Part shown: in pieces, positions 2,226 to 12,868 of the stretch
Position numbering within the stretch: the first letter of the stretch is position 1
How the letters are laid out: every line of letters begins with the position of its first letter
IMG/VR virus record: IMGVR_UViG_2690316248_000008
Length of the DNA: 17,916 bases
Direction: 5' to 3' (one strand)
Origin: a virus
Lineage: Duplodnaviria; Heunggongvirae; Uroviricota; Caudoviricetes
Program-made: the position numbers and the translations under genes
Notes under the pieces: model-generated
What the model was told of the DNA's origin: nothing
Databases searched by the model: none
What the model saw: only the letters and a program-made list of their open reading frames with translations

Positions 2226-2876
2226 TCAGCGGCTGTCATTGCGCAGTCTGCGCTCCAGCTGCTGTTTGTCTTTTTTCACGCCACAGCGGGGATCGAGCTG
2301 TAACGCATGGTTGAGATGATTAAGGGCGGAAGCCGGATTGCTTTCACTCAGGACAGCGCCAATCGCTTTATGCAGACGCGCCCGTGACTGGTCCGGCATA
2401 TCCAGACCGTCTGTCAGCTCCAGCGTCTGCAACAACAGATCGGCATCAAAGCCGGTGGCGGCAAGCATTGCGCTCTGCGCGGCGTCTGCCATTTCCTCTG
2501 CCAGCACGGTCTGCACGTTGCGGTTACCCAGCGGCATCACCCAGCCATGACGCAGGGCATGACGCCCGATCTCCAGCGCTCCGGCATAATCTCCGGCATC
2601 AATGCGCCACAGCATCACGTACATCAGCACGTCATCCTGTTGAGCGCCTCCGGCAGCCAGGACACCCTCTGCCCAGGCGGCGTACTTCGGCAGCAGCTCC
2701 ACCTTGATTTCCGCTTTTTTGACCGTGGACTGAACGCCCTTGAGACGGCGGCGGTCTTCCGCCAGTTGCAGCAGCATCAGGTCATGGCCCGATGCGTGGC
2801 GAACACTGCCGCCCTCGCGGGCGGCCTGTTCAGCCTGAACGCGCAGGCGATGCTGCCGTGCGGGACTCAGGTTCAT
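2226..2876 (-). CDS. M: Terminase endonuclease/small subunit (P2 gpM-like)
   Basis: 216 aa; position between N and L. ATG at 2876 with GGAG 8 nt upstream, 3 bp after the N stop. Confidence 0.85.
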   Translation of the reverse strand: MNLSPARQHRLRVQAEQAAREGGSVRHASGHDLMLLQLAEDRRRLKGVQSTVKKAEIKVELLPKYAAWAEGVLAAGGAQQDDVLMYVMLWRIDAGDYAGALEIGRHALRHGWVMPLGNRNVQTVLAEEMADAAQSAMLAATGFDADLLLQTLELTDGLDMPDQSRARLHKAIGAVLSESNPASALNHLNHALQLDPRCGVKKDKQQLERRLRNDSR

Positions 2877-4788: not shown

Positions 4789-4866
4789 GAGCCGTGCTCC
4801 GTTAGAAAAAACTTACTGGAGCCTTATGGTTGCGGTGATGGGGGCAGTGAAACAATGCGCGGTATT

Positions 4867-4884
4867 TGTACCGACAACCACACA
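4867..4884. promoter_or_regulatory. TGT-N12-ACA dyad in the O/P divergent intergenic region, candidate Ogr/Delta-type late activator site
   Basis: Sequence TGT-ACCGACAACCAC-ACA read directly. P2-family late promoters carry a TGT-N12-ACA element near -55 (established knowledge). Spacing fits a leftward O promoter better than a P promoter. Confidence 0.5.
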
Positions 4885-4930
4885 AACCGCAGGCGGGGAA
4901 AGCCTTCATTCAAGGCTGTAGGTTTGTGCC

Positions 4931-6697
4931 ATGAACACCACACTGACACCCGCAGATCTCGATCCCCGTCGGCAGGCCATGCTGCTGTACTTTCAGGGAT
5001 ACCGCGTAGCCCGCATTGCTGAAATGCTGGGCGAGAAAGTTGCAACTGTTCACAGCTGGAAAAAACGCGACAAGTGGGGTGACTATGGGCCGCTGGATCA
5101 GATGCAGCTCACCACCGCCGCACGCTACTGCCAGCTCATTATGAAGGAGCACAAAGAAGGGAAAGATTTCAAAGAGATTGACCTGCTGGCGCGCCAGTCG
5201 GAGCGCCATGCGCGGATCGGCAAGTTTAACAATGGCGGCAACGAAGCCGACTTAAACCCTAACGTCGCCAACCGCAACAAAGGCCCGCGCCGTCAGCCGG
5301 AAAAGAACGTTTTCACCGATGAACAGATTGAGAAGCTGGAAGAAATCTTCCATTCCTCCATGTTCAACTACCAGCGCCACTGGTGGGAAGCCGGAAAAAA
5401 CAACCGCATCCGCAACCTGCTGAAGTCACGCCAGATCGGCGCAACCTTTTACTTTGCCCGTGAAGCCCTGATTGACGCTCTGCTTACCGGGCGTAACCAG
5501 ATTTTCCTTTCCGCCAGTAAGGCACAGGCCCACGTCTTTAAGCAGTACATCATCGACTTCGCCAAAGAAGTGGAGGTGGAGCTGAAAGGCGATCCGATGG
5601 TGCTTCCTAACGGGGCCACGCTTTACTTCCTAGGCACCAATGCCCGCACGGCCCAGAGTTATCACGGCAACCTGTATCTGGATGAATATTTCTGGATACC
5701 AAAATTTCAGGAGCTGCGCAAAGTGGCTTCCGGTATGGCTATTCACAAGAAATGGCGACAGACCTATTTTTCCACGCCATCCAGCCTGACCCACAGTGCT
5801 TATCCGTTCTGGTCCGGCGCGTTGTTCAACCGTGGGCGCAACAAAGCCGATAAGGTGGACATCGACCTGTCCCACAGCAATCTGGCCCCCGGCCTGCTGT
5901 GCGCAGACGGGCAATACCGCCAGATAGTCACCGTGGAAGATGCGGTACGCGGCGGCTGTAACCTGTTCGACCTCGACCAGTTGCGCATGGAGTACAGCCC
6001 GGACGAATACCAGAACCTGCTGATGTGCGAGTTCGTTGACGATCTCGCATCTGTGTTCCCGCTCAGCGAATTGCAGGCGTGCATGGTGGACAGCTGGGAA
6101 GTCTGGACCGACTTTCATGCACTGGCGCTGCGCCCGTTTGGCTGGCGCGAAGTGTGGATCGGTTATGACCCGGCAAAAGGTACGCAGAACGGCGACAGTG
6201 CCGGATGCGTGGTGGTGGCTCCGCCAGCCGTGCCGGGCGGTAAGTTCCGTATTCTTGAGCGTCACCAGTGGCGCGGGATGGACTTCCGCGCCCAGGCGGA
6301 CGCCATCAAAAAACTGACCGAACAGTACAACGTGACATATATCGGCATCGACTCGACAGGTGTCGGTCACGGGGTTTATGAGAACGTGAAAGCGTTCTTT
6401 CCTGCCGTCCGGGAGTTTGTCTACAACCCCAACGTTAAAAACGCCCTGGTACTCAAGGCCTACGACATTATCAGCCACCGCCGTCTGGAGTTTGACGCCG
6501 GACACACCGACATTGCGCAGTCATTCATGGCAATCCGTCGCGCAACCACCGCCAGCGGCAACCGCCCGACCTATGAAGCCAGCCGCAGCGAAGAAGCCAG
6601 CCACGCCGATCTGGCCTGGGCAACAATGCACGCACTGTTTAACGAACCACTGCAGGGCGAGTCCGCCAATACCAGTAATATTGTGGAGATTTTTTGA
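4931..6697 (+). CDS. P: Terminase ATPase/large subunit (P2 gpP-like)
   Basis: 588 aa; divergent from O and immediately upstream of the portal gene, as in P2. Its stop overlaps the Q start (TGATG). Confidence 0.9.
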   Translation: MNTTLTPADLDPRRQAMLLYFQGYRVARIAEMLGEKVATVHSWKKRDKWGDYGPLDQMQLTTAARYCQLIMKEHKEGKDFKEIDLLARQSERHARIGKFNNGGNEADLNPNVANRNKGPRRQPEKNVFTDEQIEKLEEIFHSSMFNYQRHWWEAGKNNRIRNLLKSRQIGATFYFAREALIDALLTGRNQIFLSASKAQAHVFKQYIIDFAKEVEVELKGDPMVLPNGATLYFLGTNARTAQSYHGNLYLDEYFWIPKFQELRKVASGMAIHKKWRQTYFSTPSSLTHSAYPFWSGALFNRGRNKADKVDIDLSHSNLAPGLLCADGQYRQIVTVEDAVRGGCNLFDLDQLRMEYSPDEYQNLLMCEFVDDLASVFPLSELQACMVDSWEVWTDFHALALRPFGWREVWIGYDPAKGTQNGDSAGCVVVAPPAVPGGKFRILERHQWRGMDFRAQADAIKKLTEQYNVTYIGIDSTGVGHGVYENVKAFFPAVREFVYNPNVKNALVLKAYDIISHRRLEFDAGHTDIAQSFMAIRRATTASGNRPTYEASRSEEASHADLAWATMHALFNEPLQGESANTSNIVEIF

Positions 6698-7722
6698 TGG
6701 GAAAGAGTAAGAAGAACCGCGCTGCGTCGACGAACCAGCTCCAGCATAAAAGCCAGACTTCAGCCGAAGCATTCAGCTTCGGTGATCCCGTTCCTGTTCT
6801 GGACCGCCGTGAACTGCTGGACTATGTGGAATGCGTACAGACAGATCGCTGGTATGAGCCGCCCGTCAGCTTTGACGGACTGGCGCGCACCTTCCGCGCC
6901 GCCGTGCATCACAGTTCTCCGATTGCAGTAAAGTGCAACATTCTGACCAGTACCTATATCCCTCATCCGCTGCTCAGCCAGCAGGCTTTTTCGCGTTTTG
7001 TGCAGGACTATCTGGTATTTGGTAACGCCTACCTGGAGAAACGCACGAACCGATTCGGTGAAGTTATCGCCCTTGATCCTGCGCTGGCAAAATACACCCG
7101 ACGCGGGTTAGACCTGGATACCTACTGGTTTGTGCAATACGGTATGACAACCCAGCCGTATCAGTTCACGAAAGGCAGCATTTTTCATCTGATGGAACCG
7201 GACATCAACCAGGAGATCTACGGCCTGCCCGGCTATCTTTCTGCCATTCCGTCAGCCCTGCTCAATAAGTCCGCCACGCTGTTCCGCCGCAAGTATTACA
7301 TCAACGGCAGCCATGCAGGCTTCATCATGTATATGACCGATGCCGCGCAGAATCAGGAGGATGTGAACAATCTCCGCAACGCGATGAAAAGTGCCAAAGG
7401 TCCTGGTAACTTCCGTAACCTGTTTATGTACTCGCCTAACGGTAAAAAGGACGGGCTTCAGATTATCCCGTTGTCAGAAGTGGCGGCGAAGGATGAGTTC
7501 CTGAATATCAAGAACGTGAGCCGGGACGACATGATGGCGGCGCATCGTGTGCCGCCACAAATGATGGGGATAATGCCTAATAATGTTGGAGGGTTTGGGG
7601 ATGTGGAGAAGGCGAGTAAGGTTTTTGTTAGAAATGAACTAATTCCACTCCAAAAAAGAATAATGGAAGTTAATGAATGGTTAGGTGAGAAAACTATCCG
7701 ATTTCAGCATTATGATTTATAA
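6697..7722 (+). CDS. Q: Portal protein (P2 gpQ-like)
   Basis: 341 aa from the ATG at 6697 (GGAG RBS 9 nt upstream). The ORF-track start at 6694 is a TTG. Followed by a strong terminator. Confidence 0.9.
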   Translation: MGKSKKNRAASTNQLQHKSQTSAEAFSFGDPVPVLDRRELLDYVECVQTDRWYEPPVSFDGLARTFRAAVHHSSPIAVKCNILTSTYIPHPLLSQQAFSRFVQDYLVFGNAYLEKRTNRFGEVIALDPALAKYTRRGLDLDTYWFVQYGMTTQPYQFTKGSIFHLMEPDINQEIYGLPGYLSAIPSALLNKSATLFRRKYYINGSHAGFIMYMTDAAQNQEDVNNLRNAMKSAKGPGNFRNLFMYSPNGKKDGLQIIPLSEVAAKDEFLNIKNVSRDDMMAAHRVPPQMMGIMPNNVGGFGDVEKASKVFVRNELIPLQKRIMEVNEWLGEKTIRFQHYDL

Positions 7723-7747
7723 AAAAACGCCCTAAAAGGGCGTTTTC
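7721..7747. terminator. Bidirectional rho-independent terminator between portal gene Q and the convergent cargo operon
   Basis: AAAACGCCC-TAAAA-GGGCGTTTT hairpin with a 9-bp stem. It is followed by a T-run on the plus strand and by seven T on the minus strand. Confidence 0.7.
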
Positions 7748-8194
7748 CTAAGATTCTGTCGTTGTCTCTAATGAACACCAAGCATTAATTCCCATTTTTG
7801 AGACAGCTATCAACATAATTACTACAGCTGGAGCAATAAATGTTGCTGTTGCCCCCAAAGAACCCGCAATTGCCGAAGAGATCACCCCTACAAAGTATGT
7901 TTTAACATCACCAGTCAGTGCTCCTAAACATTCCCTCTCCTCTGCATATTTATCACCTCCACATACAAAAGCCTTAAACTCTAATTTAAACTGCTCAACA
8001 AACGCTTTTCTTCCCGGCATTTTTGAATTATCACCGCCAAATTGAGCAACTGAACTTGGGCCAGATGCAGTTAGCCATAGCTCAAGAGCCTTTTCTTCAT
8101 CGCCATTTTCGAGAAAATTCCTGACAGATGAAGATTGATACGTTTTTAAAGTGGACAACCAAGACTCAGCATCTTCATTTGGTATAGCAATCAT
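7748..8194 (-). CDS. Hypothetical protein with soluble N-terminal domain and C-terminal membrane anchor; partner of the upstream protease
   Basis: 148 aa. The C-terminal hydrophobic stretch YFVGVISSAIAGSLGATATFIAPAVVIMLIAVSKMGI is about 35 residues, enough for one long helix or a TM hairpin. ATG overlaps the protease stop (ATGA at 8191-8194). AT-rich codon usage, unlike the phage core. Confidence 0.6.
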   Translation of the reverse strand: MIAIPNEDAESWLSTLKTYQSSSVRNFLENGDEEKALELWLTASGPSSVAQFGGDNSKMPGRKAFVEQFKLEFKAFVCGGDKYAEERECLGALTGDVKTYFVGVISSAIAGSLGATATFIAPAVVIMLIAVSKMGINAWCSLETTTES

Positions 8195-8838
8195 AACATA
8201 TCCTTAACATATTCTGCAGAAACCGCATAAGTTGTCTGATGTAGTTCAGCTGGATTAATACCTCCAACCAAAACAGAACCTCCAGAATTATTTGCATAAG
8301 CGCCAACCAAGACGCCTATTACCGAGTCATTTTTTAAATTAAATACAATCGATCCCGATTGACCAGGTCTGGTTTGGATATTTATAACGGCATGTTTAGA
8401 TTGAATATTACTGCTTGAAAGTAAAACTTTTGCACCTATTTTTGCCGTTTGAAATGTCAATACTTTTCTATTTTCATTACAATGTGGGAAACCTAAAATA
8501 CCCACATCTTCACCGACATTAACATCGTCAAGAGTAGCAATTTTTAGGCAAGGTTCATAAACAGGTGCATTTTTAATTTTTAACACACATAAGTCTTTTA
8601 TTGGATCTTCATCAATAACATCAACTCCAATACATTGAAATTTATCAACACTTGTATCCTGATAACTATTAAAGTTATTTATATTAGATGGAGAAATAAC
8701 TAAGTTAGAAGAAAACCCATTAATAACATGGCGGGAAGTAATTATTTTATCCTTAGAAATAAAAAAACCTGTTCCTAAAAAACTAACCAAACCTGCATTA
8801 AGCACGCCAACAACTACGACATATTCAGGACCAATCAT
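8191..8838 (-). CDS. Trypsin-fold (chymotrypsin-like, S1/Trypsin_2-type) serine protease
   Basis: Catalytic triad motifs in canonical order: GTGFFISKDKIITSRHVI (His), DLCVLKI (Asp), PGQSGSIVF (Ser). Start set at the ATG at 8838 with GGAG about 5-8 nt upstream. The ORF-track extension to 8976 would run across the cos-like sequence. Confidence 0.75.
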   Translation of the reverse strand: MIGPEYVVVVGVLNAGLVSFLGTGFFISKDKIITSRHVINGFSSNLVISPSNINNFNSYQDTSVDKFQCIGVDVIDEDPIKDLCVLKIKNAPVYEPCLKIATLDDVNVGEDVGILGFPHCNENRKVLTFQTAKIGAKVLLSSSNIQSKHAVINIQTRPGQSGSIVFNLKNDSVIGVLVGAYANNSGGSVLVGGINPAELHQTTYAVSAEYVKDML

Positions 8839-8921
8839 AACAACTCCATTCTGTAATATGTTATGGACTCTGACTAAGACAATACTTAACCAAACCGTGA
8901 ATATCAAGGTGCAAGCGCGCG

Positions 8922-8940
8922 CTCGTATCCCCGCCACGCC
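8922..8940 (-). other. Putative cos cohesive-end sequence
   Basis: The minus strand reads GGCGTGGCGGGGATACGAG. Its first 13 nt match the 186-type cohesive end as I recall it (GGCGTGGCGGGGA...), and the adjacent AGCGCGCG resembles the sequence next to P2 cos. Orientation relative to Q is as expected. Based on recalled sequences, not a search. Confidence 0.4.
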
Positions 8941-8989
8941 TGCCCGCTTTATGTAGTGGTTTTCATGCAGGAGCATGATCTACGCAAAA

Positions 8990-9009
8990 GCCCGCCAGTT
9001 CTGGCGGGC
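8990..9009. other. Perfect 9-bp inverted repeat (GCCCGCCAG-TT-CTGGCGGGC) beside the cos-like site
   Basis: Read directly from sequence. A T-run follows only on the minus strand. Could be a terminator or a packaging/cos accessory structure. Confidence 0.35.
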
Positions 9010-9282
9010 CTTAGCAAAAACGATCCTCAAACGATCATGCAATCTCATGCAGCATAGACATGCACAGACGAGTAAAGCGAATCGGACTTTACGCAAGGTG
9101 AACTCCTCAGCGGGCATAATCAGTATGTCGGAAGATCTCTAAAAATAAATAATTCGGTTAACAGGTATGCTTACAAAAGCATATATTTGATTAAAAATCA
9201 TGTAAGGGGGAGGATCTCAAACTGAATCGCCACGGGTTTTACAAATTTCGATAGTCTCTCTAACGTTTCGGCTGAGGTCAAA

Positions 9283-9708
9283 ATGAAAAGCTTTTACGTA
9301 TTAATTTTAATTCTGGTTGCAAGCTTTGTTAGCGTCCCTGTTCAGGCGGTAACAGCTAAAAACTATGAGAAAGGAACTAAAGCTCAACAGAAATCAATAT
9401 CTTACCTTTCATGTGCATTCTATGGCAGTAGCACACAATTAGATCCTAGCTACACGGAGCAAGTACCTACAGCCGATATCAAGATATTACAGAAAGCAGC
9501 TTACCACGCTTACAACGATGCGCTCTCATACTTTGGCTATGAGGAACCAGATCACGAACAACGCATAATTGATTATGCTGAATTTGTGGCGTCGCAAGAA
9601 GCTGTGTTATGGGATAAGCCGGGAATGAATGGAAAGCAGGTAACACTAATTGCTCGTTCTCTCTACAATGAGAGTAACTGTAACTTGTTACTGGACTCAA
9701 TTAAGTAG
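9283..9708 (+). CDS. Hypothetical secreted/periplasmic protein (cargo moron)
   Basis: 141 aa. N-terminal signal peptide MKSFYVLILILVASFVSVPVQA with an AXA-type cleavage site. GAGG RBS upstream. AT-rich; the only plus-strand gene between cos and gene A. Confidence 0.6.
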   Translation: MKSFYVLILILVASFVSVPVQAVTAKNYEKGTKAQQKSISYLSCAFYGSSTQLDPSYTEQVPTADIKILQKAAYHAYNDALSYFGYEEPDHEQRIIDYAEFVASQEAVLWDKPGMNGKQVTLIARSLYNESNCNLLLDSIK

Positions 9709-9867
9709 GAAAAAGATGGTATTTTGCCCGTAGTTTCAACCTTAATCTCCGAACCTATCGCAGAACGGGCGTTCACTCATCAAATAAACGCCACACCTAA
9801 CGCCTCACTGTACTCGTTGTTCAACCTTGCTGACGCCAGAACCAAGTTCAGACGCCAGCAACTTTTC

Positions 9868-10101
9868 TTAATGCAGCCAGCTGTCGTCTTCCCACACCTT
9901 CTGCATAATCTTCATCACTTGTTTTCTTTCTTCGTCCAGTTGCAGTCCGGTCAGTTCCACACCGTTAGAGCTACCTTTGCGGATGCGAATTACCGTTTTG
10001 GGATACAGGGGGCGCAGATTGCGGTAAAGCTCGGATTCAAGGGCGTCCAGGGTAGACTGGCTAATCTTCTGCTCTTTATCGATCATTATTTCAATGCGCA
10101 T
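9868..10101 (-). CDS. DinI-family protein (Tum C-terminal-like)
   Basis: 77 aa from the ATG at 10101. MRIEIMIDK...LDALESEL...KIMQKVWEDDSW resembles E. coli DinI (MRIEV..., ending with an acidic W-containing tail). RBS GAGGTGA overlaps the stop of the upstream gene. Confidence 0.8.
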   Translation of the reverse strand: MRIEIMIDKEQKISQSTLDALESELYRNLRPLYPKTVIRIRKGSSNGVELTGLQLDEERKQVMKIMQKVWEDDSWLH

Positions 10102-10111
10102 AAAGGTCACC

Positions 10112-10300
10112 TCAGCTGATGACATCCATTGAGCGGTTGTATTCGTGGGTTCTGATTTTTGCCATGAGTTCATCTGTCAGTTCAGAAACCCACTGCAAAG
10201 CCAGCCCCTTCTCTTCATCACTACACTCACTAGCCGCTACAAGCTTAAGAAAAAAATCAATGCGCTGGAGCTTCAAAGACTCCAAAAAATAGTCCTGCAT
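10112..10300 (-). CDS. Small SOS-regulated protein, possible Tum-like antirepressor N-terminal part
   Basis: 62 aa from the ATG at 10300, with AGGAGG 4 nt upstream. It is the first gene downstream of the LexA box and 10 bp upstream of the DinI-like gene. Confidence 0.5.
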   Translation of the reverse strand: MQDYFLESLKLQRIDFFLKLVAASECSDEEKGLALQWVSELTDELMAKIRTHEYNRSMDVIS

Positions 10301-10341
10301 CTTTCCTCCTATGACACCACAAGCAATACTGTATACATAAC

Positions 10342-10361
10342 CACTGTTTATATTTACAGTA
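10342..10361. promoter_or_regulatory. LexA operator (SOS box) in the promoter of the small-protein/DinI-like operon
   Basis: CACTGTTTATATTTACAGTA is a perfect CTGT-N8-ACAG palindrome with an AT-rich core. Candidate -35 TTTACA and -10 TATACT on the minus strand overlap it. Confidence 0.7.
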
Positions 10362-10453
10362 TATAATAATCTTACTGATGTAAAACGTTTTTTTACGTTC
10401 ATTAGCCTGATATGCCTGGTATTATTAAGAGCACGAATTGTTAACCCGCGTAA

Positions 10454-12868
10454 TTAATACAGGTTTCGCCACTTATCATCTTCCTGCAAACGCTGGTTCC
10501 GATAGAAGATACGCAGGCCTGCTCCTGACGGAATACTGCCGCCGCGAAGGAGTAAATCGACCTCTTTCTCGCTGCCATTAAATCCTCTGGACTTCAGTTC
10601 ATAGACGAGCTGCTGTCGCTGATGGTCTATAATTCGCTGTTTGTAGTCTTTACGCCGTTTCGGTTTCACCAGGCGTAACCTTGCAGCCAGTTCCCGGCGC
10701 TCTTTTTTGCTCATACTGTGCAGGTAATCGTGCAACTCCTTGTCATCCATGCGGGTAATGTCCGTCCTGGTATCCCCATCAGCTGATTTGTCTTTCCCTT
10801 GTTGGTTCAAATTTTCAGCAAGGGGACAGTTATTGCCACGAGTCCAAGGGGCGCAAGCGCCCTGGTCGGCTGCCGCCTCCTGAACGTCAACGGCTTTACG
10901 AACCATTTTCCACTTCACTGCATGAGTGCAGATCTTGCCTTCTGCAATGGGTGACCAGATGCCATAAATACGAATACCGTGATCGCCATAGGCGGTCGGC
11001 TCTTCATTGATTTCATAAGCGGTTCTGATCAAGTGATATTTGCGAGGAACCAGCACGCCGCCCTGCCTCATAATGTAGGTGGCAAAACAGCCAGCATCAG
11101 CAGCAGCCAGGATGGCATCAAGGCGCGGGTTATCCAGTACCGGCGCACCTGCTTTTTTGTCACCCTGCTGCCTTGCCGCCTGACCAGCCAACAACCGCAG
11201 TTCACGGTAAGCCTGACGCCCTGGAATACCAAAGAAGCGGAATTGCTGAACACGATGCAGAGACGCCCAGGCATTAACGTATTCAGCGTTATCACGCAGG
11301 GATTTACCCGTTTCCTTGCTGATCTCGCCAGCCAGACCACGCCCGTCAATGTTCTTACTGATGTATTTCGCGATGTAGCTTGTCGGCGTTCCTTTGCGCG
11401 GGTTTATCAGCTCAGATTTAAAGCGTGGACCAGTGTTATTACCCAGTTCCTCGCGGTCTTCACGGATGGCAAACTTACGCAACAATGCAGTAATGGCGCG
11501 GCGGTCTTTTTTGCGCATAAAACACAACAGGTGCCAGTGAACTGTACCGTCATGATGCGGCTCAGCCACCCGCACGCCATACCAGCGCAACCCGGCTTTG
11601 TGCATCGCCTTACGAAATGCAGCAAACATGCCGACCAGATAATCGCTGCTTTGTCTTACCGTCGCATTTGTCCAGGTTGGGTTTGGTCTGCCGTTATTGA
11701 GCGTGGAATGGAAACGTGACGGACAGGTAATGGTGTAGAAAACGGCGCAGTCACCGCGCATTTCCGCGATAAGCTCCAGACCTTTAACACAGGCCATCAT
11801 CTCATTGCGGCGGTGCGCCGGGTTGCTGCTGCTGGCGTTTACCACGTCTTCCATATCCAGCGTGTCGCCCTCTTCGTTCACCAGTTCATGAGAACGGAAA
11901 AACTCCAGTGACTTGCGGCGCTGCTCACGTTTATGCATCACGGCTTCATAGCTGACATAGGGAGATGCTTTTTTGCTGACCAGGCAGACAGCACGCAACT
12001 GCTCTTCCCGCCATTCGCAACGCATTTTCCATAATTTCCGGTACCACCAGTCGGCGCACAACATACGCGCCAGCGAACCCGGAATGAGTTCATAGGGCAC
12101 GGGTTTACGGCGGTTTCTTTTCCGACGGAGTTGCTCAAACGCAGGCGGGATGACATCCAGACGCAGGGTTTCCGCTGCCACCTTTTCCCATGTCTTGCGG
12201 ATTTCTTCTGGCTTAACGTCATCGGTGGCATACAAATCACCACAAGCTGCATCAAGGCACATGCTCATATGCGCAGCGACAAGGGTAGACAGGCGTTTCA
12301 CCTGATCCTGACTCATTTCAGGCAGAATCAGCAGGCCGTCCAGCCCTACATGGCTTGCCATAAAACGAAAAGATGCAGATAGCTGGCTGTCGCGTACATG
12401 CTCCAGTCGTTCCAGACATGGCTTAATCGTCTCACGTAAATAGCGGGAATAAGCCTTTGGCCTGCCCAGGCTGCTGAAGTATTCAATACGTTGCATCAGC
12501 GGCTTGCTGATATGGGAAGGCTGGGCGTTGACGTCCGCCAGAATGACCATATCCGGATTAAAACGCTGCTGCTCATGCGCCAGCTTTGCCCGGCTAATGA
12601 GCTTATCCTGCTCCATTTCGTGCTGGACAGGATCACGTGATTCATTAAAAAAATAACGCTCCCAGACCTGATCACTCAGTGCCTCGCGGCGCAACTGTTC
12701 CTGCTCGTTATCGGCAGCGTACAGAGTGATCAGGTTTGAAAGCGCAGAAACCGGCGCAACTTCCGCCGGGTCCAGATAAGGGTTAATGGCCTTTTTCGGG
12801 CTGTTCCATGAGAACGCTGCGGCAGCCTCGTTAAAGCCGCAGCAGTTGTTCATATCGGCATGGCTCAT
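10454..12868 (-). CDS. A: Replication initiation endonuclease (P2/186 gpA-like, rolling-circle initiator)
   Basis: 804 aa, the largest early gene, in the gpA position downstream of the early operon. Call rests on size, position and overall resemblance to P2/186 A proteins; no single motif was verified. ATG overlaps the Dam stop (ATGA). Confidence 0.85.

Follow-up and report, generated by a model that had tools for sequence, protein, structure and literature searches.

In the cohesive-end (cos) sites of the coliphages P2 and 186, both of the P2 family, a 19-nt G+C-rich overhang is flanked by AAGCGGGC and GCGCGC and is accompanied by TGCAT repeats at the right end. In both phages only about 170 bp, consisting of a terminator and conserved left-arm DNA, lies between cos and the portal gene, and the accessory genes (old/tin in P2 and tum/orf97 in 186) are confined to the right arm. 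Foreign genes between cosL and the portal gene are also on record, and this interval has been proposed as a pick-up place for such genes (PMC5694545, citing Dodd & Egan 1996 and Nakayama et al. 1999); as cited in the same paper, the retrons Ec67 and Ec86 of 186-related prophages, phiCTX and ORF1–4 of phiRSY1 represent the same slot, from cos to the terminator or the end of the portal gene. The interval between gpA and gpQ, which contains cos, is known as a cos-adjacent anti-phage hotspot of P2-like prophages (Rousset et al. 2022, PMC9122126; 2026 follow-up, PMC13586616), and in the passages retrieved from these two papers it is described as a single hotspot, with the side of cos on which the cargo lies left unstated. 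Here, we analysed a stretch of 17,916 nucleotides from a tailed-phage record (IMGVR_UViG_2690316248_000008; hereafter the window), in which an initial annotation had placed a cos-like sequence about 1.2 kb from the portal gene Q. On the basis of homology, position and orientation, positions 8915–9065 of the window are very probably the cos of an apparently intact Fels-2-type prophage of the P2 family, which is about 34.5 kb long and is located between ybjL and rcdA in Escherichia coli.

The minus strand from 8940 to 8922 reads GGCGTGGCGGGGATACGAG (on the plus strand, CTCGTATCCCCGCCACGCC), which is of the G+C-rich cohesive-end type GGCG(A/T)GGCGGGG... of the P2 family. The first 13 nt of this 19-mer had been recognized as those of the 186 cohesive end, and the public record of 186 (GGCGTGGCGGGGAAAGCAT) confirms this, with identity at 15 of the 19 positions overall; the corresponding values are 14 of 19 for P2 (GGCGAGGCGGGGAAAGCAC) and 18 of 19 for Smp131. 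The agreement is complete with the Fels-2 sequence and with positions 1–19 of phage SEN8, which are annotated as a 'putative cos site'. SEN8 is a plaque-forming Felsduovirus that has been plaque-purified and banded in CsCl, and the 19-mer has already been published for this phage (PMC5427200). The genome record of SEN8, which terminates with ...AAAGCGGGCA, and that of EtG, a 186-like Erwinia phage, both stop precisely at the counterpart of position 8941 of the window. The 10-bp palindrome reported next to the cohesive end is also present as AGCGCGCGCT, but it starts one base further to the right than first given, occupying 8914–8923, and it overlaps the 19-mer by its final two bases. The 19-mer is flanked by the half-sites AAGCGCGCG and TGCCCGCTT, for which twofold rotational symmetry was computed at seven of nine positions, and the AGCGGGC...GCGCGCT flanks of this region are also present in P2 and 186. 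The symmetry fits the expectation for a symmetric nicking site, and nicks are predicted from the sequence at 8941/8940 on the minus strand and at 8921/8922 on the plus strand, giving a putative 19-nt 5' overhang.

The homology extends beyond the cohesive end itself. When the window was aligned with the circularized ends of P2 and 186, the check that the initial annotation had called for, an ungapped 58-bp core was found with 43 of 58 positions identical to P2 and 45 of 58 identical to 186; the limits of the published 55-bp core (Ziermann & Calendar 1990) were taken from its citations in PMC5694545 and PMC3931495. The minus strand of the window and the circularized ends have a common architecture, TGCAT(T/G)AAAACC-N-AAGCGGGC(A/G), then the 19-mer, then (T/C)GCGCGC, and share extra TGCAT motifs further to the right, so that the conserved core around the cohesive end is common to all three. 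A BLAST comparison of the region with 50,697 phage records gave matches in 87–91 records, confined to a block of about 150 bp (8913/8915–9065) and with E-values down to 1e-64, from P2-like phages of Klebsiella, Salmonella, Escherichia, Yersinia and Erwinia. It could be argued that a G+C-rich sequence came to resemble the 186 end by chance and has no functional meaning, as just 13 contiguous bases match 186. However, this explanation is already refuted by the identity at all 19 positions to Fels-2 and SEN8, by the homology over about 150 bp to 91 phage records and by the occurrence of the exact 13-mer GGCGTGGCGGGGA as a single copy in the window, and its probability is negligible. When up to two mismatches are allowed, the 13-mer has two matches in the window against a chance expectation of 0.39. 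Given the agreement in the 58-bp core and the conservation of a 151-bp block in 139 relatives, the match is judged to be far beyond chance.

This 151-bp block, the cos island, was delimited in a survey of 160 loci anchored on relatives of the portal protein of the window, comprising 80 bacterial loci (one genome per species) and 80 loci from IMG/VR. A cos core follows Q in 145 loci, a number in which Fels-2, two loci from E. coli and the window itself are counted, and 139 distinct sequences were registered on the core and stacked. Column conservation is about 0.8–1.0 across 8915–9065 and drops to a background of about 0.3–0.4 within 2–3 bp beyond both edges, and both half-sites of the nicking region lie within strongly conserved columns. 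As the island is about 90–100% conserved in 139 sequences from many Enterobacterales, with unrelated flanks, it appears to be under purifying selection independent of the flanking genes. The island extends unequally from the 19-mer, by 7 bp toward the portal gene and by about 125 bp toward gpA. The gpA-side part includes four CATGCA repeats in the same orientation (TGCATG on the minus strand), so that four of the nine occurrences counted in the 17.9-kb window fall within a stretch of about 100 bp, and the TGCAT repeats of P2 and 186 are found at aligned positions. A G+C-rich hairpin (GCCCGCCAG/CTGGCGGGC) is also present here, with a U-run behind it when read on the minus strand, and the minus-strand RNA folds with −27.6 kcal/mol (z = −5.2); the pairs are kept in 73–96% of the 139 sequences and, in the ungapped alignment, are mostly invariant, with few compensatory changes. 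An Rfam scan of the whole window gave no family above threshold, and the island therefore corresponds to no known RNA element. By analogy with cosB of lambda, and with 186, in which the terminator t95b lies at the matching place, between orf97 and cos, the gpA-side part of the island may serve as the terminase recognition region, and the hairpin may act as a terminator that shields cosN from right-arm transcription.

The strong hairpin with its U-run, together with the position of t95b in 186, might also suggest that the block is conserved mainly as a terminator or regulatory region of the right-arm DinI/accessory operon and that packaging specificity resides elsewhere. This is very improbable, since the hairpin spans only about 20 of the 151 conserved base pairs, and the best-conserved columns are instead the 19-mer and its symmetric flanks, which in P2 and 186 are experimentally known cohesive ends. 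Moreover, the gene nearest to the hairpin on the gpA side points away from it, and a role as a terminator would be compatible with a role as cos and no substitute for it. In the phage records, that of Escherichia phage Cartapus (OV696611.1) ends at the equivalent of position 8973, inside the island and 32 bp from the predicted nick; this record also has a second matching place, and its end is probably an arbitrary assembly start.

The surroundings of the island are those of a cos in a P2-type genome (Table 1). It is located between gpA and Q with its left end facing Q, and its orientation and position relative to gpQ and gpA are the same as in the P2 and 186 records, as the initial annotation had held for the orientation. 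The stop codon of Q and the start of the 19-mer are separated by 1,199 bp, in agreement with the distance of about 1.2 kb given there. A cos of a P4-like satellite was considered and dismissed, given that structural and replication genes of the P2 type flank the site. The segment 7600–10500 is 100% identical in E. coli SF-468, in several avian pathogenic E. coli (APEC) O1:K1:H7 strains and in human extraintestinal pathogenic E. coli (ExPEC) strains; among 5,426 complete genomes, 13 contain the full arrangement and 1,285 contain parts of it. The prophage of SF-468 extends from ogr to the integrase gene, and its length is close to the 33.6 kb of P2 and the 35.2 kb of SEN8. In this identical prophage, the terminase, portal, head, tail, lysis, replication, immunity and integrase genes are complete, the core set is free of pseudogene flags, and the cognate gpP, gpM and portal genes are intact in the same element as judged from Pfam matches and annotation. 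Because the core genes are annotated as full length and the large terminase subunit has three domains, the prophage looks packaging-competent. The same prophage carries, outside the window, a 652-amino-acid (aa) AAA family ATPase gene (9287–11245 of locus L009) between the baseplate gene V and a virion morphogenesis gene, a further accessory gene within the late region.

Table 1 Positions of the features of the window (position 1 is its first letter; a dot denotes no strand)
Feature	Position	Strand	Basis or remark
Terminase endonuclease/small subunit gene (P2 gpM homologue)	2226..2876	-	RefSeq annotation of identical prophage (L009 14627-15277)
Terminase large subunit gene (P2 gpP homologue), full length	4931..6697	+	Terminase_5, Terminase_6N, Terminase_6C
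Portal protein gene Q (P2 gpQ homologue)	6694..7722	+	Pfam Phage_portal; annotation
Hairpin CGCCC-TAAAA-GGGCG with A-run and T-run flanks	7721..7746	.	Direct reading; between converging Q and PDC-M35B genes
Cargo cassette, about 1.19 kb	7723..8914	-	Homology breakpoints; unrelated genes in relatives
148-aa partner, hydrophobic C-terminus, PDC-M35B	7748..8194	-	PDC-M35B 4.3e-58; start overlaps protease stop by 4 nt
S1/trypsin-like serine peptidase, 215 aa, PADLOC candidate PDC-M35A	8191..8838	-	Trypsin_2 1.2e-15; PDC-M35A 4.5e-94; WP_001350593
Promoter-like site (TTGATA, 17 nt, TATTGT), 15 bp inside left arm	8879..8907	-	9/12 match; predicted
cosN-like nicking region	8913..8949	.	Half-sites AAGCGCGCG (8913-8921) and TGCCCGCTT (8941-8949); includes palindrome
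Conserved cos island, 151 bp	8915..9065	.	Column conservation, BLAST edges, mosaic breakpoints
Predicted 19-nt 5' cohesive end	8922..8940	-	Sequence reading; identity to Fels-2 and to annotated cos of SEN8
Four CATGCA repeats	8964, 9036, 9046, 9059 (span 8964..9064)	.	Candidate cosB-like terminase recognition
G+C-rich hairpin, then U-run	8990..9009	-	Terminator-like
141-aa protein gene, right-arm accessory	9283..9708	+	N-terminal signal-peptide-like sequence in translation; WP_000834899
SOS module	9868..10359	-	LexA box 10344-10359; 62-aa open reading frame (ORF) 10112-10300; DinI-like gene 9868-10101 (DinI 1.3e-22)
Replication endonuclease gene (P2 gpA homologue), far border of accessory region	10454..12868	-	Phage_GPA 2.1e-127

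The closest relatives of this cos are those of the Felsduovirus phages (Salmonella SEN8, Fels-2 and RE-2010) and of related P2-like prophages of Klebsiella and E. coli, which have the identical 19-mer and an island that is 92–97% identical. As in the window, the conserved CGCGCGC of these phages is directly followed by lineage-specific cargo and then by the portal gene, and a small ORF and a DinI gene are found beside gpA on the opposite side of cos. Compared with P2 and 186, the left-arm homology of the window stops 7 bp beyond the nick and is followed by 1.2 kb of cargo. Compared with the slots of Ec67, Ec86, phiCTX and phiRSY1, as cited in PMC5694545, the window has other cargo in another host lineage. 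The borders of the cargo are visible as breakpoints: homology to other E. coli P2-like prophages of the lineage ends at 7686–7727, in the last codons of Q, and restarts at 8913–8915, and the DNA from cos to gpA is 99.9% identical in some E. coli prophages whose Q–cos interval differs. The insertion of cargo on the left arm, as initially proposed, is therefore supported, with the qualification given below that it is usual in this lineage.

The protease operon reported between cos and Q is present, as two adjacent genes on the minus strand. The match to the PDC-M35A profile covers 211 of 216 positions of the peptidase profile and that to PDC-M35B 140 of 148 positions, and the pair is thus a candidate PADLOC phage-defence system, PDC-M35, with a putative defence function suggested by sequence similarity. 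No Pfam match was found for the 148-aa partner, and a literature search for PDC-M35 returned no mention of it and no published test of the protease and partner system; this system lies outside the set tested by Rousset et al. (2022). Table S5 of that paper nevertheless lists the exact arrangement of WP_001154434, WP_001350593, WP_000560513, WP_000834899 and DinI, and the variable genes of the window do occupy the gpA–gpQ interval of a P2-like prophage. The 'Peptidase + TM' construct pFR104 of Rousset et al. (2022) was considered as a possible equivalent of the cassette and rejected, as its peptidase has an HExxH motif of the metallopeptidase type and shows no relationship to the S1 protease of the window. 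The S1 protease has homologues in many phyla. The same gene pair, about 75% identical, is joined to cos at the same base in P2-like prophages of Klebsiella pneumoniae, and the TTGATA hexamer of the promoter-like site is kept in this copy. The same protease with a partner of about 140 aa also occurs as a moron of Mu-like prophages of Aeromonas, between the tape-measure and tail genes (5001–6064 of locus L177, from Aeromonas dhakensis, and locus L176). Its occurrence in both P2-like and Mu-like prophages indicates that the cassette moves between unrelated phage backbones. At the other end of the cassette, the hairpin between the converging genes looks like a bidirectional terminator; the promoter/terminator scan did not flag it, and relatives carry different hairpins at this place.

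The start of the protease gene bears directly on the island, since a longer ORF of 261 aa (8191–8976) runs through it. This ORF, a mechanical extension of the protease that adds 46 upstream codons and crosses the cos island, was rejected as the true gene. Translation almost certainly begins at the ATG at 8838, which is preferred on account of a GGAG Shine–Dalgarno sequence 6 nt upstream, the RefSeq call (WP_001350593) at the same coordinates, the 215-aa length of the closest homologues and the absence of read-through of a conserved non-coding island. Similar spurious small ORFs across cos are called automatically in relatives, for example a 65-aa ORF at 4791–4988 of locus L174.

On the other side of cos, in the position equivalent to old/tin of P2 and tum/orf97 of 186, the secreted-protein gene and SOS module reported by the initial annotation were both found. 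The 141-aa protein has no Pfam or PADLOC match, and its gene is transcribed away from cos; in Fels-2 an orf97-like gene is found on the right arm, whereas in the window it is replaced by this oppositely oriented signal-peptide protein gene. The protein WP_000834899 recurs in many E. coli P2-like prophages and has at least 32 mentions in the retrieved part of Table S5 of Rousset et al. (2022). In the SOS module, a perfect LexA box, CTGTTTATATTTACAG, is located about 45 nt upstream of the 62-aa ORF, with the DinI-like gene next. It looks like an SOS-inducible, Tum-like module as in 186, being analogous to the p95–tum operon of that phage and matching the small ORF and DinI of Fels-2 and SEN8.

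The survey shows how common left-arm cargo is. Among the 145 Fels-2-type loci, the Q–cos interval is shorter than 300 bp in 13, 300–1000 bp in 22, 1–2 kb in 72 and longer than 2 kb in 38, with a median of 1.65 kb and 112 distinct sequence clusters. Cargo of at least 300 bp is thus present on the Q side in 132 loci, so that Q-side cargo is the norm of the lineage and no peculiarity of the window prophage. In this slot, Fels-2 encodes a 565-aa hypothetical protein, phage 500465-1 a TIR protein and SEN8 an HNH endonuclease together with a hypothetical protein; other E. coli prophages encode DUF6953 or DUF4062 proteins there. In contrast, among prophages with a P2-type portal protein (99% identity), the Q–cos interval is 159–172 bp in 77 of 79, and 1.3–6.1 kb lies between cos and gpA. 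The two lineages, represented here by loci L178–L257 (relatives of the P2 portal protein) and L010–L169 (relatives of that of the window), therefore place their cargo on opposite sides of cos, although the samples, drawn as redundant IMG/VR contigs and as one genome for each species, are not corrected for phylogeny. In 'empty' Fels-2-type loci (L094, L147, L015, L031, L033 and L029), the roughly 180 bp after the portal gene consist of a terminator and about 95 bp of conserved non-coding DNA (…GCCGCCAGCGGGCCAGAGGCTGCGCCGGATTTTGGCCATTTTACCCCGTTGCGCGCGC) up to cos. This stretch of about 95 bp has the same position as the Q–cos interval of P2 and 186 and is gone from the cargo-bearing loci, including the viable phage SEN8. 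In a Klebsiella pneumoniae prophage (locus L173), a 494-aa reverse transcriptase gene (RVT_1; 1468–2952) is located between gpA and the small ORF and DinI module, and the protease cassette is present on the Q side, so that both slots are filled at once.

The arrangement of the window is an ordinary, already catalogued case of a known organization. What is mildly new from the survey is that the island reaches only 7 bp beyond the nick toward the portal gene and that cargo is found on opposite sides in P2-type and Fels-2-type prophages. From this, it could tentatively be proposed, with low confidence, that the gpA–gpQ hotspot consists of two cargo slots split by the 151-bp cos island and that the use of the slots depends on the lineage; in the Fels-2-type prophages sampled, the Q-side cargo starts exactly 7 bp past the nick. 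Two extensions of this proposal are more speculative still: the terminase might need essentially no left-arm sequence beyond the nicking half-site, and the cos island, or the double-strand end made by the terminase, might anchor the recombination that drives cassette exchange. If so, each cassette promoter would lie within about 15–45 bp of the physical end of the virion DNA.

If the island is the cos of this prophage, its use may be pictured as follows. After induction, circular phage DNA would be recognized by the prophage's own terminase (the gpM and gpP homologues in Table 1), probably via the part of the island on the gpA side with its four TGCATG repeats and hairpin. The terminase would then make the staggered nicks predicted above within the partly twofold-symmetric element, yielding 19-nt 5' overhangs that read GGCGTGGCGGGGATACGAG. 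The left end of the linear virion DNA would consist of the 19-mer and 7 conserved base pairs, followed by the 1.19-kb cassette and then Q, and at the right end the gene of the signal-peptide protein and the LexA-controlled DinI/Tum-like module would be found beside gpA. The cassette itself would be one of many alternatives exchanged among related prophages, probably by recombination in the conserved flanks, namely the 3' end of Q and the cos island.

Several observations weigh against this assignment and should be set beside it. The stretch of about 95 bp found on the left arm of the 'empty' relatives is absent from the window, as are the matching left-arm sequences of P2 and 186, and if the lost DNA aided packaging, the cos of the window could be weaker; SEN8 also lacks the stretch, yet makes plaques. 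In the promoter/terminator scan of the region, the number of sites was not above that in shuffled sequences, and the promoter of the cassette scored no better than chance, so that it stands as a prediction only. The cos of the window is predicted by homology, and that of SEN8 was likewise assigned by annotation based on similarity and not by end sequencing. Finally, all of the 100% identical copies are in related ExPEC and APEC strains, a distribution that gives no sign of recent mobility of the prophage. It fits vertical inheritance and, together with the visible decay of other E. coli copies of this prophage lineage (truncated tape-measure, scaffold and terminase genes in loci L007 and L008), could mean that the site is a genuine cos by descent but belongs to a prophage that is defective or never induced, and is a relic no longer cut in this host. 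We consider this unlikely, however, as the annotation of the window-type copy gives all P2 core genes at full length and the large terminase subunit retains all three of its domains, the island is undegraded compared with the consensus of the 139 relatives, and the induction module is intact, both in its LexA box and in its DinI/Tum-like part. A cos belonging to an apparently intact prophage is accordingly the interpretation that we prefer.

In conclusion, this study assigns the probable cos of a common prophage of ExPEC and APEC strains of E. coli. Leaving the current understanding of P2-family packaging unchanged, the assignment fixes the predicted virion genome ends of this prophage, allocates its accessory genes to the left or right arm and exposes the 261-aa ORF through cos as an artefact. 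The survey amounts to a natural 'deletion analysis' of the Fels-2-type cos, with 7 bp conserved on the portal side against about 125 bp on the other side. These findings may be of use for the construction of cos-plasmids and of phagemid or transduction vectors for this lineage, as well as for defining cassette borders when P2-like prophages are mined for defence systems.

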